NCBI RefSeq assembly: GCF_024223415.1
Contig: NZ_CP100500.1
Reading direction: 5' to 3' (one strand)
Source: Escherichia coli
GTDB taxonomy: Bacteria; Pseudomonadota; Gammaproteobacteria; Enterobacterales; Enterobacteriaceae
DNA: 64,000 nucleotides
Notes under the pieces: model-generated
Told to the model about the DNA's origin: nothing
Seen by the model: the letters and a program-made list of their open reading frames with translations, nothing else
Database searches by the model: none
Position numbers and translations under genes: made by a program
Shown here: positions 43,910 through 59,626 of the stretch, piece by piece
How the letters are laid out: each line of letters opens with the position of its first letter
Numbering within the stretch: position 1 is the stretch's first letter

Positions 43910-44581
43910 ATGCGCGTACTGGTTGTTGAAGACAATGCGTTGTTACGTCACCACCTTAAAGTTCAGATTCAGGATGCTGGTCATCAGGTCGATGACGCAG
44001 AAGATGCCAAAGAAGCCGATTATTATCTCAATGAACATTTACCGGATATTGCGATTGTCGATCTCGGATTGCCAGACGAGGACGGTCTGTCACTGATTCG
44101 CCGCTGGCGTAGCAATGATGTTTCACTGCCGATTCTGGTATTAACCGCCCGTGAAAGCTGGCAGGACAAAGTCGAAGTATTAAGTGCTGGTGCTGATGAT
44201 TACGTGACTAAACCATTTCATATTGAAGAGGTGATGGCGCGAATGCAGGCATTAATGCGGCGTAATAGCGGTCTGGCTTCACAGGTCATTTCGCTACCAC
44301 CGTTTCAGGTTGATCTCTCTCGCCGTGAATTATCTATTAATGACGAAGTGATCAAACTGACCGCGTTCGAATACACCATTATGGAAACGTTGATACGCAA
44401 TAATGGCAAAGTGGTGAGCAAAGATTCGTTAATGCTCCAACTCTATCCGGATGCGGAGCTGCGGGAAAGCCATACCATTGATGTACTGATGGGACGTCTG
44501 CGCAAAAAAATTCAGGCACAATATCCGCAAGAAGTGATTACTACCGTTCGCGGCCAGGGCTATTTGTTCGAATTGCGCTGA
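43910..44581 (+). CDS. phoP: Response regulator PhoP
   Basis: 223-aa OmpR-family regulator [40 protein letters not shown]... Confidence 0.97.
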
Positions 44582-46041
44582 TGAAAAAATTACTGCGTCT
44601 TTTTTTCCCGCTCTCGCTGCGGGTACGTTTTCTGTTGGCAACGGCAGCGGTAGTACTGGTGCTTTCGCTTGCCTACGGAATGGTCGCGCTGATCGGTTAT
44701 AGCGTCAGTTTCGATAAAACTACGTTTCGGCTGTTACGTGGCGAGAGCAATCTGTTCTATACCCTTGCGAAGTGGGAAAACAATAAGTTGCATGTCGAGT
44801 TACCCGAAAATATCGACAAGCAAAGCCCCACCATGACGCTAATTTATGATGAGAACGGGCAGCTTTTATGGGCGCAACGTGACGTGCCCTGGCTGATGAA
44901 GATGATCCAGCCTGACTGGCTGAAATCGAATGGTTTTCATGAAATTGAAGCGGATGTTAACGATACCAGCCTCTTGCTGAGTGGAGATCATTCAATACAG
45001 CAACAGTTGCAGGAAGTGCGGGAAGATGATGACGACGCGGAGATGACCCACTCGGTGGCGGTAAACGTCTACCCGGCAACATCGCGGATGCCAAAGTTAA
45101 CCATTGTGGTGGTGGATACCATTCCGGTGGAGCTAAAAAGTTCCTATATGGTCTGGAGCTGGTTTATCTATGTGCTCTCAGCCAATCTGCTGTTAGTGAT
45201 CCCGCTGCTGTGGGTCGCCGCCTGGTGGAGTTTACGCCCCATCGAAGCCCTGGCAAAAGAAGTCCGCGAACTGGAAGAACATAACCGCGAATTGCTCAAT
45301 CCAGCCACAACGCGAGAACTGACCAGTCTGGTACGAAACCTGAACCGATTGTTAAAAAGCGAACGCGAACGTTACGACAAATACCGTACAACGCTCACCG
45401 ACCTGACCCATAGTCTGAAAACGCCACTGGCGGTGCTGCAAAGTACGCTGCGTTCTCTGCGTAGTGAAAAGATGAGCGTCAGTGATGCTGAACCGGTAAT
45501 GCTGGAGCAAATCAGCCGCATTTCACAGCAAATTGGCTACTACCTGCATCGTGCCAGTATGCGCGGCGGGACATTGCTCAGCCGCGAGCTGCATCCGGTC
45601 GCCCCACTGCTGGACAATCTCACCTCGGCGCTGAACAAAGTGTATCAACGCAAAGGGGTCAATATCTCTCTCGATATTTCGCCAGAGATCAGCTTTGTCG
45701 GTGAGCAGAACGATTTTGTCGAGGTGATGGGCAATGTGCTGGATAATGCCTGTAAATATTGCCTCGAGTTTGTCGAAATTTCTGCAAGGCAAACCGACGA
45801 GCATCTCTATATTGTGGTCGAGGATGATGGACCCGGTATTCCATTAAGCAAGCGAGAGGTCATTTTCGACCGTGGTCAACGGGTTGATACTTTACGCCCT
45901 GGGCAAGGTGTGGGGCTGGCGGTAGCCCGCGAAATCACCGAGCAATATGAGGGTAAAATCGTCGCCGGAGAGAGCATGCTGGGCGGTGCGCGGATGGAGG
46001 TGATTTTTGGTCGCCAGCATTCTGCGCCGAAAGATGAATAA
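44581..46041 (+). CDS. phoQ: Sensor histidine kinase PhoQ
   Basis: 486-aa ORF overlapping the phoP stop; two TM segments, periplasmic sensor, HAMP and HisKA/HATPase domains. Confidence 0.97.
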
Positions 46042-56036: not shown

Positions 56037-56221
56037 TTTTTAAATTCCCCACTTGCTCCCCACCTCGTTTTTTGAGTGAATCTAATGCTTTGTTTTTCAT
56101 TGCGTTTTTTGCTCCCCACTTTTTTGGATGTATACAGGTGGGAAAGTGGGGAATTATGTTTCAATTTTGTTAAATTCCCCACTCTCCCCACTTTTACTAC
56201 CCACTTTTTACAGTGGGTAAA
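56007..56221. repeat. Iteron array, putative replication origin of the island
   Basis: At least 9 direct copies of (C/T)TCCCCAC(TTTT) at irregular spacing plus 3 inverted copies (AGTGGGGAA, GGTGGGAAA, CAGTGGGTAAA) with A/T-rich spacers, directly 3' of the rep gene. Confidence 0.8.
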
Positions 56222-57614
56222 CATCATCCCCATCGACACAAATCACGCCGTCTTTTTCCAGCTTGTACAGCCAGCGCCGGAAGTGCTTCATCTCATACCC
56301 CAGCTTTTTCATATCGTCGCGGAGAAGGGCGATAGTGCATGGCTCTTTGTGTGCCGTCCGCGTTCTGATGCACTGCCATAGCGCGGCGTGATTCTCCGAT
56401 TTGTTGCCTGCTTCCTCGATGCGCTCCAGTTCAGCAGGGGCGCGGGGAACGTCAATCACCACCATAGACACAATCTCTTCGCCATCTGTATCGGTGAACA
56501 CCTCCACGCTTTTAAGGTCGTATGCACTCTCTTTTGGCTCCTCTGCGTCCTTCATCTTCGTACACGCCGCCACCAGTGCTGTAACGTCTGAATTTTCCCG
56601 GCTGATTCGGTACTCTGCATCAAGCGCGGCACGGAATGCGCTGGAACCACGCGCCCCCTTTGTTTCATCCTTGCCGGAATGGTGAACCACCAGCACCGTG
56701 GCCCCTGTGGCCTGCTTTATCGCGTCACACCCCTGGATAAATGCGCCCATATCACGGGAATCATTTTCATCATTCCCACCAAAGCAACGGGCCAGTGTGT
56801 CGATCACAATCAGCCGCACATTTTCGCCCGTTCTGCTCTTAACAAGTCCGGCAGTCCTGATAACCTGCTCCACATAGTCAGGCGATGCAGGGAAAACAGG
56901 CGCGTTAATGATGCACAAATCTGTAACCACCTTGTCGTGGGTTATCTCCCACGCCTTAACGCGGCGTTTTACGCCCATGCTGCCTTCACCAGCGATATAG
57001 ATAACCGCCCCCTTACTTACCCTGCGGCCTCCCCATGCCATACCTGTGGCAACATGGCACGACCAGGAAATGGCGAGGAACGATTTATAAGAACCGCTGG
57101 CCCCGTAGGTGCTGCATAATGACTCAGCCGGAATAAGCCCCTTAATTACGTAGCTTTGCTGCGCGTCGAATCCCTCAGAACCCCATGAGATGGGAAGCGT
57201 GATTTTTCGCTTTCCGCCATTCATGACCAGGCTTTCCCCTCTCTCCCATGTTTCCCGTAGTCGTGGTAGCTGGTCGCTCCAGTCCTCCAGCAGTTCGAAA
57301 TTTTCAGAAAGTAGCCGCGCCTCCTGGACTCCGGCGATCGCCAGTTTTGTGGCAATGGTCAGCATCTGCATATCGTCCAGGTTTCCGGCGCGTATGACCT
57401 TTGCCCTGTATCGTCCTTCATCAACAATCTGTAAGTTGTCCAGTTCGCTTAACTGATAACGGCCCAGGTAAACCGGAGGGATGGGATCGCCTGCTTTTTT
57501 GGCCTGTGCAATCATGTAATGTTCTGCAAAGGAGTGAGCATTATCACCCGCAAAAATAACCGCCTCAGTGTGTTTATCTTTCGGTAACAGTTTTACGTTC
57601 GGTGCAAGTTTCAT
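56208..57614 (-). CDS. Replication initiator / RepA-like P-loop ATPase (AAA_25-type helicase domain)
   Basis: 468-aa ORF with central P-loop-like segment (YGASGSYKS...LIVIDTLARCF...VLVVHHSGKDETKG), the pattern of RepA/DnaB-like helicases; N-terminal 150 aa unassigned. Confidence 0.7.
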   Translation of the reverse strand: MKLAPNVKLLPKDKHTEAVIFAGDNAHSFAEHYMIAQAKKAGDPIPPVYLGRYQLSELDNLQIVDEGRYRAKVIRAGNLDDMQMLTIATKLAIAGVQEARLLSENFELLEDWSDQLPRLRETWERGESLVMNGGKRKITLPISWGSEGFDAQQSYVIKGLIPAESLCSTYGASGSYKSFLAISWSCHVATGMAWGGRRVSKGAVIYIAGEGSMGVKRRVKAWEITHDKVVTDLCIINAPVFPASPDYVEQVIRTAGLVKSRTGENVRLIVIDTLARCFGGNDENDSRDMGAFIQGCDAIKQATGATVLVVHHSGKDETKGARGSSAFRAALDAEYRISRENSDVTALVAACTKMKDAEEPKESAYDLKSVEVFTDTDGEEIVSMVVIDVPRAPAELERIEEAGNKSENHAALWQCIRTRTAHKEPCTIALLRDDMKKLGYEMKHFRRWLYKLEKDGVICVDGDDVYPL

Positions 57615-57898
57615 TTCTTACCCCCTGCGACCAGCATTTCACGGATTTTGCGGATATAACTTGCAGCACGTTTCTGATTAACGGCTTTACGATGGCCCAC
57701 CAGCGTGAAATCACGCCGGAACTGATAAACAGGCATAACGCAGTCATATTCGTAGCCTTCACGGCGGTAAGTTACGCGACGTTCCTCCACGCTTTTAATT
57801 GTTACCGTGCCGCCGTAGTTATCTTTGAAAATATCGCCGGGGCGGATTTCAGGCCGAGCGGGGCCGCTGGCAGTAAAGCCAGAATATTTAAGTTTCAT
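57611..57898 (-). CDS. Hypothetical protein (95 aa), translationally coupled to rep
   Basis: Stop overlaps the rep start. Confidence 0.55.
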   Translation of the reverse strand: MKLKYSGFTASGPARPEIRPGDIFKDNYGGTVTIKSVEERRVTYRREGYEYDCVMPVYQFRRDFTLVGHRKAVNQKRAASYIRKIREMLVAGGKK

Positions 57899-57903
57899 TA
57901 TTT

Positions 57904-58137
57904 TTATTCTCCGGTGTGCTGTTCTTTATATCTGTCGTGCAATAGGTCTATTTCCTGCAACTCTGTTATTACAGGTTCAAGGAGAGTTATCAGAGATTTA
58001 ATAATCCGCGCATTCTTTACATCACGCTCATTATCGCCAAATGTATCTGGATACATTTGCAATATTTCGTACATACCTTCAGCGTAAGCAATGGCACTAA
58101 ATGCGCGGTCTATTGTTTCGAGGTAAATATCACGCAT
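57904..58137 (-). CDS. Hypothetical protein (77 aa)
   Basis: Tightly packed with flanking small ORFs on the same strand. Confidence 0.5.
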   Translation of the reverse strand: MRDIYLETIDRAFSAIAYAEGMYEILQMYPDTFGDNERDVKNARIIKSLITLLEPVITELQEIDLLHDRYKEQHTGE

Positions 58138-58138
58138 A

Positions 58139-58387
58139 TTAATCCCCGTCCGTCGTTTTTCTTAAAATAACCTCTGTCACGAAATCAGCATAATCGGCGG
58201 CGATATTCAGTACATCAAGCCCCGTTGATTTATATTCTCTCGTGGAAAGTAAGAAAAAAGCCGCTCTAATAAGCTCTGGCATTGACGAAAGCGCATCAGC
58301 CGCATCATCAGGAACGCCGGAAAATTCCTGTTTCAGGGAATTAAAACGATCATCACGCATAACCCCCCCCATTTTCACAATCAGCAA
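58139..58387 (-). CDS. Hypothetical protein (about 73-82 aa)
   Basis: Tightly packed small ORF; start may be the internal Met at 58360. Confidence 0.45.
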   Translation of the reverse strand: MLIVKMGGVMRDDRFNSLKQEFSGVPDDAADALSSMPELIRAAFFLLSTREYKSTGLDVLNIAADYADFVTEVILRKTTDGD

Positions 58388-58634
58388 TCAGGATGGCTTT
58401 GGCCTCATTCAGTGCCATATCAGCGGTAAGCTGTGCGTAGGCCAGCAAATGCGGGATTATTGCCCCTGTATATTCCGTCTCTCTGGTAATGTGTTTTTCT
58501 GCGGTTGCTGCCGTGCATGAAATATCAATCAGCGCGTGCATCAGCGTTTTGATGGCTTCGGCGGCTGCGTCCGGACGGGTGTTATTGCACATGGCACACC
58601 TCCTGACGGATACGGGCGGCGAATACAGCGACAC
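58353..58634 (-). CDS. Hypothetical protein (up to 93 aa), first gene of the leftward early operon
   Basis: ORF immediately downstream of the divergent promoter region; start uncertain. Confidence 0.4.
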   Translation of the reverse strand: MSLYSPPVSVRRCAMCNNTRPDAAAEAIKTLMHALIDISCTAATAEKHITRETEYTGAIIPHLLAYAQLTADMALNEAKAILIADCENGGGYA

Positions 58635-58872
58635 AACCGGACGGGCAACGGTTACGCGCTTCGCGTTCCGTCCAGGCGGTCACGTGGATAATTTGAGATT
58701 CTCCGGCACTCAGTGCCAGAAAACGCCACACAAAGGCGGTTTGTGTGTGCGCTAGTCGTGGGGTATGCTGTGTTCCAGCCATAATCGTTACTCCTGTTAA
58801 CGGTTTGGTTAGACGCCCTGCATGTGTTACAGCACTGCGGGGCGTTGTCTTTTTAACGGCTTTCGTGATAGG

Positions 58873-58914
58873 GTGTACACCTATCAAGCAAAAAAATAAC
58901 GCTATAGGTGTACA
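58873..58914. promoter_or_regulatory. Palindromic operator overlapping the RHH gene start
   Basis: Perfect 12-bp inverted repeat GTGTACACCTAT (58873-58884) and ATAGGTGTACAC (58903-58914), each half containing the self-complementary GTGTACAC; ends 1 bp before the RHH ATG. Confidence 0.7.
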
Positions 58915-58915
58915 C

Positions 58916-59110
58916 ATGTCAACAGTTATTAAGCGAGATAAAAAACCAAAGGGAACAGGAAAAGCCCCCCCATTCCATATGCGAATAGCTCCAGAACTGA
59001 AAGAGCAGTTTGATAATGAGGCCAGCAATGATGGGGTAAGCCTAGCCAACTGGCTTAAAGAGTTGGGACGCAGTGAACTGAAGCGGCGCGGTATAGAACC
59101 CAAAGGTTGA
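58916..59110 (+). CDS. Ribbon-helix-helix (Arc/MetJ-type) DNA-binding protein, candidate island repressor
   Basis: 64-aa product MSTVIKRDKKPKGTGKAPPFHMRIAPELKEQFDNEASNDGVSLANWLKELGRSELKRRGIEPKG fits a beta-strand plus two helices RHH fold; divergent from the early operon. The track ORF 58745..59110 is an upstream extension. Confidence 0.6.
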   Translation: MSTVIKRDKKPKGTGKAPPFHMRIAPELKEQFDNEASNDGVSLANWLKELGRSELKRRGIEPKG

Positions 59111-59437: not shown

Positions 59438-59626
59438 TTAGTGAACTGCCTCGCAGCTTTCCTTCCATGCCAGAACTTCGGATAAAGACCAGCCAACGGA
59501 ACGACCGCCCAGCTTACGCCGTGATGGGAATTGTCCGGCCTTTTCCAGGCGGTAGCGGCATGAGCGGCTAAGCCCTGTTAGCTTTTCGCATTCTTTTTCA
59601 CGTATAAAACGATCAGTGCTTAACAC
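59438..59626 (-). CDS. alpA: AlpA-family transcriptional regulator
   Basis: 62-aa ORF MLSTDRFIREKECEKLTGLSRSCRYRLEKAGQFPSRRKLGGRSVGWSLSEVLAWKE with the AlpA/MerR-like HTH pattern; sits next to the integrase as in P4-like elements and PICIs. Confidence 0.8.
   Translation of the reverse strand: MLSTDRFIREKECEKLTGLSRSCRYRLEKAGQFPSRRKLGGRSVGWSLSEVLAWKESCEAVH

Follow-up and report, generated by a model that had tools for sequence, protein, structure and literature searches.

The four genes of the cluster

The stretch analyzed here (the window) covers 64,000 nucleotides (nt) of Escherichia coli contig NZ_CP100500.1 (assembly GCF_024223415.1). Our subject is a cluster of four small open reading frames (ORFs) on its minus strand, immediately upstream of the replication gene of an island that, judged from its sequence, is a capsid-forming phage-inducible chromosomal island (cf-PICI) at the O157 OI-51/EcCIEDL933 site. 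The four ORFs fill positions 57611–58592 with hardly any intergenic DNA:

57611..57898, minus strand: ORF1, 95 amino acids (aa), basic, isoelectric point (pI) 10.1; RgdR/DUF4222 family
57904..58137, minus strand: ORF2, 77 aa, acidic, pI 4.6
58139..58360, minus strand: ORF3, 73 aa, acidic, pI 4.4, helical; corresponds to the C-terminal half of 150-aa fused proteins
58353..58592, minus strand: ORF4, 79 aa, acidic, pI 4.9, modeled as a helical hairpin; equivalent to the fused proteins over their N-terminal half
58363..58370, minus strand: G8 homopolymer at the ORF4/ORF3 junction; also the Shine–Dalgarno-like stretch for ORF3

A first-pass annotation, which took the start of the longest ORF in each case, had placed four tightly packed ORFs of 77–95 aa between 57611 and 58634. 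The 57611 end stands; the upper end moves to 58592, and the lengths become 95, 77, 73, and 79 aa (ORF1 to ORF4). For ORF4, the earlier start was GTG 58634 (93 aa). The ATG at 58592 has AGGAGG 6 nt upstream, and the exact 79-aa product occurs on 37 contigs of the protein collection, in which the 93-aa version was not found. With ORF4 starting at 58592, the upper 42 nt of the earlier interval are therefore part of an Icd-like gene (58582–58782). For ORF3, the start is corrected to ATG 58360 (73 aa), with the exact sequence on at least 1000 contigs; TTG 58387 is not the start. ATG 58592 and ATG 58360 are most likely the true starts.

Neighboring genes overlap or abut throughout. The Icd-like gene and ORF4 overlap by 11 nt and ORF4 and ORF3 by 8 nt; ORF3 and ORF2 are separated by 1 nt, and ORF2 and ORF1 by 5 nt. 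ORF1 and the replication gene (rep) overlap by 4 nt (ATGA, 57611–57614), in agreement with the earlier view that the last ORF is translationally coupled to rep. Each ORF has a Shine–Dalgarno-like stretch upstream (AGGAGG for ORF4, the G run for ORF3, GGGGA for ORF2, and GGAG for ORF1). In related islands, all four ORFs carry RefSeq annotation, and homologs with conserved lengths are present in hundreds of E. coli islands. The ratio of nonsynonymous to synonymous substitution rates (dN/dS), given as the median against orthologs in 80 related loci, is 0.27 for ORF1, 0.24 for ORF2, 0.31 for ORF3, and 0.27 for ORF4; the Icd-like gene has 0.32 and RepA 0.10. Lack of conservation or of a coding signal in related islands had been named beforehand as what would speak against the cluster; conserved lengths, low dN/dS, and ribosome-binding sites are all found. 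These comparisons confirm the four ORFs, on the same strand and with near-zero gaps, as real, coding, conserved early genes of the satellite.

ORF1 is a member of the RgdR/DUF4222 family

The first-pass annotation recognized no motif in any of the four products. For ORF1 this does not hold, and its membership in the RgdR/DUF4222 family is clear from profile and alignment. ORF1 matches Pfam PF13973 (DUF4222) at profile positions 1–52 of 53, with E 4.4e-26 and 90.6 bits against a cut-off of 27, and it is 61% identical, over 99 columns and at full length, to ECs1581 (RgdR) of the Sakai strain. In an alignment of 26 DUF4222 members, 27 columns are invariant, mostly in the core (residues ~20–68). 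Residue 20 is P in most of the 26 members and R, N, H, or L in the rest. In ORF1, residues 20–22 are PGD, not RGD; ORF1 is therefore a DUF4222 family member but no “RGD” variant.

By deletion and complementation, RgdR (ECs1581) was found to raise transcription of LEE1 (in the locus of enterocyte effacement, or LEE) and type III secretion and to lower motility (PMC3378721). The protein binds DNA with low affinity and without sequence specificity, and residue 20, in the RGD motif, is important for LEE activation (PMC3378721). LEE1 activation and motility repression were shown only for ECs1581 and C1493 (PMC3378721). RgdR is encoded in all the E. coli PICIs analyzed by Fillol-Salom et al. (PMC6092414). 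RgdR of EcCIEDL933 and ORF1 have in common the DUF4222 domain, the slot 5′ of and overlapping the replication gene, the roxA/phoQ insertion site, their size (99 vs. 95 aa), and their basic charge. On the other hand, the C-terminal third differs, RGD in RgdR is PGD in ORF1, and ECs1581 is coupled to a DUF927 primase-type protein, whereas ORF1 is coupled to a RepA helicase.

In the AlphaFold model of ORF1, the mean predicted local distance difference test score (pLDDT) is 75, with 88–91 in the core. Five strands form an SH3/Tudor-like barrel in the model, and a long basic helix makes up the C terminus. The barrel is a lead only, because the SH3/Tudor-like fold is very common. Searched against BFVD, the model gave uncharacterized phage proteins and DUF1653, none with an attached function, and searches against PDB sequences gave only chance-level matches (E > 0.3).

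DUF4222 is paired with the replication gene

The DUF4222 gene ends at the start of rep in all 80 IMG/VR loci found with ORF1, of which 35 have a RepA helicase and 45 a DUF927 primase-type protein. With RepA as the anchor, DUF4222 adjoins rep in 75 of 77 loci by tblastn, and the two remaining loci have a diverged DUF4222 allele in the same place (77 of 77). The arrangement is kept in distant islands, in which ORF1 is 38–44% identical, and in the temperate phages SfIV, SfII, mEp460, and e14, a DUF4222 ORF ends 11 nt inside an O-like replication gene. One DUF4222 allele (92% identical) is paired with rep proteins of differing type, the common N-terminal domains of which are only 42–47% identical, and across loci ORF1 identity is only weakly correlated with RepA identity (r = 0.45). 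An allele-specific partnership between ORF1 and Rep is therefore unlikely. The RepA helicases and the DUF927 primase-type proteins have a homologous N-terminal domain (~125 aa; the 56208–56590 region of the window) with 41–47% identity, and their C-terminal enzymes are unrelated; the replication gene is therefore itself modular.

Such a pairing could mean that ORF1, alone or with ORF2–4, assists replication as an accessory factor (loader, origin-binding partner, or initiator chaperone), hence the constant coupling to rep. We regard this as possible, though on the doubtful side. DUF4222 adjoins the initiator in every locus examined, and the initiators are of three unrelated types (AAA_25 helicase, DUF927 primase type, and lambda-O type). 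ORF1 is basic, its ortholog RgdR binds DNA (PMC3378721), and an ORF2-like gene, the commonest occupant directly 5′ of DUF4222, is next to it in 58 of 72 related loci. However, the sharing of one allele between rep types and the low correlation do not favor a dedicated partner, RgdR alters host transcription without the rep of the island (PMC3378721), and many islands with the same rep are without ORF2–4.

A DUF4222 frame within ymfM of e14

In K-12, the e14 gene ymfM (b1148, 112 aa) encloses a 59-aa DUF4222 ORF in another frame. This ORF has a TTG start 8 nt after AAGGAG and ends inside the O-like replication gene. The SfIV copy is longer (73 aa; Pfam DUF4222, E 3e-19), and the DUF4222 product is identical across six phages. 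In the 3′ part of ymfM, 10 of 12 variable sites fall at the third codon position of DUF4222, which is the second position of ymfM, where the changes are nonsynonymous; in the 5′ 150 nt, variation occurs only at ymfM third positions. Selection in the ymfM frame looks confined to the first ~150 nt.

Like ORF1, the DUF4222 ORF of e14, SfIV, and SfII ends inside the start of a replication gene, and the cores are 50% identical. Unlike ORF1, it has the 59-aa barrel only, without the N-terminal 20 residues and the C-terminal helix, and it lies concealed in a second frame of the annotated ymfM. In ST64B, a 385-aa Ash + Rha regulatory protein (sb41) is present between a ymfL-like gene and the replication gene. 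A weak tblastn match to the core suggested a further DUF4222 in the N terminus of sb41, but this was set aside for lack of confirmation by Pfam.

The annotation of ymfM as a “cell division inhibitor,” with a conserved DUF4222 frame in which the 10 of 12 sites are synonymous, and the Icd-like nature of the first gene in the present operon raise another alternative: ORF1 and the Icd-like protein would inhibit host cell division during island replication, with ORF2–4 modulating them. The clone that caused filamentation did include nearly all of the e14 DUF4222 ORF. But the two frames were not told apart in the filamentation work, in which the ymfM ORF was cloned, and the last six DUF4222 codons are missing from the clone. 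Moreover, filamentation was not reported on over-expression of RgdR (PMC3378721), and the Icd-like call is sequence family membership only. We consider this alternative distinctly unlikely. In a broader conjecture, which we judge rather unlikely, the DUF4222 protein and not the YmfM frame would be the selected e14 product, possibly an SfiC-type division inhibitor; satellites and lambdoid phages would universally couple a DUF4222 host modulator to the onset of replication, and the ORF4/ORF3 G tract would act as a population-level switch upstream.

ORF2, ORF3, and ORF4 are satellite cassettes

ORF2 matches phrog_2196 (E 3e-30), ORF3 matches phrog_24341, and ORF4 matches phrog_5146. In addition, ORF4 and ORF3 match positions 1–76 and 78–145, respectively, of phrog_2512. 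These are families of unknown function; ORF4 also has a weak small-terminase match among the PHROGs (E 0.0055). There is no match of ORF2–4 in Pfam, NCBIfam, or PADLOC, and the same three collections give no profile similarity to described interference, packaging-redirection, or defense proteins. ORF2 and the fused form of ORF4 and ORF3 have only chance-level matches to PDB sequences (E > 0.3) and no tblastn match in 50,697 phage records (E ≤ 0.01).

In the AlphaFold2 model of fused ORF4–ORF3 (mean pLDDT 67), ORF4 forms helices 9–37 and 39–73 (pLDDT 70–83), a low-confidence linker (residues 76–91) occupies the junction, and the domain packing is uncertain (predicted template modeling score 0.45). 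Foldseek against the PDB returned generic helical hairpins only (ATP synthase c subunits, E ≥ 0.6), which are discounted because ORF4 is by composition no membrane protein. Profile and structure searches, which had been proposed as the check on the cluster, thus identified the family of ORF1 (DUF4222) and gave neither a family of this kind nor a fold for ORF2–4.

The ORF2 family has 445 homologs, essentially all in Escherichia; among the members listed, nearly all are exactly 77 aa long, down to 69% identity. With fused ORF4–ORF3 as the query, only 51 clusters (at 50% identity) are found among 1.84 billion representative proteins. There are 68 related loci with enough upstream DNA: the ORF2–4 trio is complete in 36 of them and wholly absent from 13, and the remainder have subsets. 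At least eight small-protein families (clustered with a requirement of 70% mutual coverage) were found in the slot. ORF2–4 are shown to be under purifying selection yet dispensable at the level of the family.

In strain Ch1, ORF2 and ORF3 are 100% identical to those of the window, and ORF1 and ORF4 are 77% and 84% identical. Nucleotide conservation is 0.97–0.98 at the ORF boundaries vs. 0.73–0.90 in the ORF bodies. Discordant identities between neighbors and conserved boundaries fit recombination at the junctions. A stretch of ~90 nt (58295–58385), which runs from the end of ORF4 across the G tract and takes in the first ~20 ORF3 codons, has almost 100% nucleotide identity in 26 distinct related islands, which exceeds the conservation of every ORF body; a joint for recombination or a signal at the RNA level would be possible explanations. 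Two further relations within the trio were considered and rejected: ORF2 as a paralog of ORF3 or ORF4 (hhalign probability 0.4%), and ORF4 and ORF3 as an obligate pair (distant ORF3-like genes are found without an ORF4-like neighbor). ORF2–4 are exchangeable, acidic, satellite-restricted cassettes, with ORF3 and ORF4 helical by model.

From their position alone, the small ORFs had been suggested to be helper-interference or capsid-size-redirecting factors. They are indeed early, small, and satellite-specific, and ORF4 has the small-terminase match. In the left operon of P4 (epsilon, orf151), small early proteins likewise occur just upstream of a replication gene (the alpha primase), and epsilon, the helper derepressor, works by binding a helper protein. 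To our knowledge, epsilon is the only positional analog among known interference genes; those of SaPIs (pathogenicity islands in Staphylococcus aureus) and of EcCICFT073 (rpp) are downstream of rep, not upstream. The P4 proteins have no sequence similarity to the ORFs of the window (Pfam and PHROG searches), and, within the reach of these searches, P4 is without a DUF4222 gene. Several observations are at odds with interference or redirection. The island encodes its own major capsid protein, protease, portal, and terminase subunits (TerS/TerL), and the prototype EcCIEDL933 does not lower helper titers (bioRxiv 10.1101/2022.09.08.507074). The cassettes are absent from 13 of the 68 related islands, searches of Pfam, PHROGs, NCBIfam, and PADLOC show no similarity to known interference or defense proteins, and the terminase match is far weaker than the matches to PHROGs of unknown function. 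A role of this kind appears improbable.

The G tract at the ORF4/ORF3 junction

The length of the G tract decides whether ORF4 and ORF3 are fused or separate: They are fused with G7 and G10 and separate with G8, G9, and G11. The window and JNE120442 have G8, and the tract of GF60 is GGTGGGGG. Strain Ch1 has G7 and, in RefSeq, one 150-aa protein. The first half of phrog_2512 (154 aa) aligns with ORF4 and the second half with ORF3, and G10 and G13 are the tract lengths that fit fused proteins carrying one or two additional glycines. The 85 distinct IMG/VR junctions comprise 31 with G8, 20 with G9, 19 with G7, four with G10, two with G11, and nine with interrupted tracts (8-, 11-, or 12-mers). 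All nine interrupted tracts are in the separate-gene frame and none in the fused frame. The junction is present in 907 of 5,426 complete genomes; near-exact matches are to G7 in 461, to G8 in 233, and to G9 in 135, counts that are upper bounds because perfect partial matches were also counted. Complete genomes of E. coli include each of these three lengths.

A homopolymer of at least 7 bases in coding sequence, with frame-changing length differences among close relatives, is one mark of a phase-variable locus, and the junction has both. As in bacterial phase-variable homopolymer loci, the run (G7–G11) lies at a coding junction, its length varies among close relatives, and the frame changes. 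Unlike in those loci, the ORF3 start is kept in every state, so that the alternatives are fused and separate and there is no on/off switch; further, the tract is stable across O157, and the variation seen here is between genomes, not within a clone. With G9, as read from the sequence, the ORF4 stop would fall 33 nt past the ORF3 start, which should loosen the translational coupling to ORF3.

Distant relatives of each half are stand-alone proteins of ~75 aa without the G run, and the ORF3-like ones are in the same operon slot. Because the distant halves stand alone in this way, the separate state would be the ancestral one, and we conclude that ORF4 and ORF3 were probably separate at first, with fusion arising repeatedly by slippage. 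That the ORFs are open merely by chance, or are pseudogenes decaying in a defective prophage, as their shortness, the lack of a domain match in three of them, and the resemblance of ORF4/ORF3 to a frameshifted 150-aa gene might suggest, is very improbable and, as far as sequence evidence goes, already refuted by dN/dS values of 0.24–0.31, lengths conserved across hundreds of genomes, a Shine–Dalgarno site for each ORF, distant relatives of both halves that are separate genes, and interrupted G tracts, hard to slip, of which none is fused.

The island and its early operon

The island is ~15 kb long, bounded by phoQ (44581–46041) and roxA (61470–62600). It contains int, alpA, the small ORFs, the RepA helicase, a protein that binds single-stranded DNA (SSB), and PerC, as well as a complete module for heads and packaging (major capsid protein, protease, portal, head closure, connector, HNH, TerS, and TerL) assigned from the ORFs and from the RefSeq annotation of 90%–96% identical islands. 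The combination of int, alpA, and rep with its own capsid and packaging module, in ~15 kb and at a fixed chromosomal site, is that of a cf-PICI. The insertion site and the layout are the same as in Sakai Sp7/OI-51/CP-933C, which is treated as the prototype cf-PICI EcCIEDL933 (PMC6092414, PMC3378721, bioRxiv 10.1101/2022.09.08.507074). Helper-phage induction, and transfer in small capsids that bear the tails of the helper, are described for EcCIEDL933 only (bioRxiv 10.1101/2022.09.08.507074).

With EcCICFT073 and EcCIEDL933 the island shares the order int–alpA–small ORFs–rep and, presumably, the dependence on helper-induced AlpA (PMC6092414). The region downstream from alpA in PICIs is variable and of unknown function (bioRxiv 10.1101/2025.02.11.637232). 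The Sakai/EDL933 element is unlike the window in that the cassettes ECs1578 and ECs1579 replace ORF4 and ORF3 and that ECs1580 is only 30% identical to ORF2. In the window the gene order is alpA, Icd-like gene, ORF4, ORF3, ORF2, ORF1, RepA, which bears out the earlier placement of the cluster in the early-operon slot of a satellite. The features around the cluster are:

59438..59626, minus strand: alpA, Pfam Phage_AlpA, E 5e-18; upstream of the operon
58582..58782, minus strand: Icd-like gene, 66 aa; NCBIfam NF033153, E 5e-18, 64.9 bits against a cut-off of 25
56208..57614, minus strand: rep, 468-aa RepA-type helicase; Pfam AAA_25, E 6e-43; “helicase RepA family protein” in relatives
58893..58922, minus strand: promoter-like site TTGACA-18-TATTTT, found by consensus scan with 10 of 12 positions matched; upstream of the Icd-like gene
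58916..59110, plus strand: ribbon–helix–helix-like gene, 64 aa, candidate regulator; matches phrog_228 (Arc-like repressor) with E 8e-6 and, weakly, HicB in Pfam

AlpA is the activator of the PICI cycle (PMC6092414). The Icd-like gene, which the first-pass annotation did not list, is the first of the operon, and its stop overlaps the start of ORF4; it is annotated by RefSeq in related islands, with one to three copies per island. The promoter-like site is a candidate early promoter only, because the count of such sites is not above shuffle expectation. The start of the divergent 64-aa gene (YlcI/YnfO family by its RefSeq name in relatives) falls inside this site, and the two may possibly form an autoregulated switch of the early operon. 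In the interval that separates alpA from the small ORFs, terminator-like hairpins occur at 58952–58976 and 58727–58747 (both on the minus strand), of which one falls within the Icd-like gene. In another species, AlpA proteins are described as antiterminators, and, by analogy, control of read-through from alpA across the hairpins is conceivable. A P1-type C4 antisense RNA upstream of the Icd-like gene was also considered and rejected, with only sub-threshold Rfam matches there (symR, isrD). The SymR match (58777–58849, plus strand; 24.7 bits against a gathering threshold of 61, E 0.22), on the strand facing the start of the Icd-like gene and its 5′ leader, is probably due to chance.

Proposed role of the cluster

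In the reading that we favor, and to which we give about an even chance, the cluster is the middle of the cf-PICI early operon, ORF1 is a fixed RgdR-type modulator, ORF2–4 are accessory cassettes, and slippage in the G tract fuses or separates ORF4 and ORF3. The operon on the alpA side would run from the Icd-like gene through ORF4, ORF3, ORF2, and ORF1 to RepA. The stops and starts overlap or abut, so the genes would be made together once a helper phage turns the island on. Through translational coupling, ORF1 would be made in step with the replication protein. Like its O157 ortholog RgdR, ORF1 would most likely be a low-specificity transcription modulator associated with DNA or with RNA polymerase. 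In the island, it probably serves to establish the early or replication phase, which would make its effects on host regulons a by-product. ORF2–4 would most likely bind a host or helper protein and would not be needed for the core cycle of replication and packaging.

Several points weigh against this proposal. ORF1 has PGD where RgdR has RGD, and residue 20 mattered in RgdR. The universal coupling to rep suits a role in replication at least as well as one in transcription. For ORF2–4, none of the searches run revealed a function; the size, charge, and helicity of the products and their place in the operon are all that suggests protein binding. Homopolymer sequencing error could account for some of the variation in the G tract, and the stability of G7 across O157 genomes argues against fast switching. 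As regards the first-pass annotation, what it observed at the locus is confirmed and its interpretation is partly supported, whereas the helper-interference reading, given the capsid module of the island, a prototype that spares its helper, and the islands without ORF2–4, is not supported.

The cluster as such is ordinary: it is the early accessory region of an E. coli phage satellite whose type is well described, and the gene conserved best in it already has a name (RgdR). Within this otherwise known kind of element, two details are unusual: the candidate fusion switch at the G tract and the universal pairing of DUF4222 with rep. In hundreds of genomes, the G tract makes or breaks a two-domain protein, which offers a natural test of cooperation between ORF4 and ORF3. 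The K-12 “cell division inhibitor YmfM” overlaps a better-conserved DUF4222 frame, and this bears on the assignment of the phenotype. Finally, the constant adjacency of DUF4222 and the initiator is a clue to the native context of a regulator previously known only for its effect on virulence genes.

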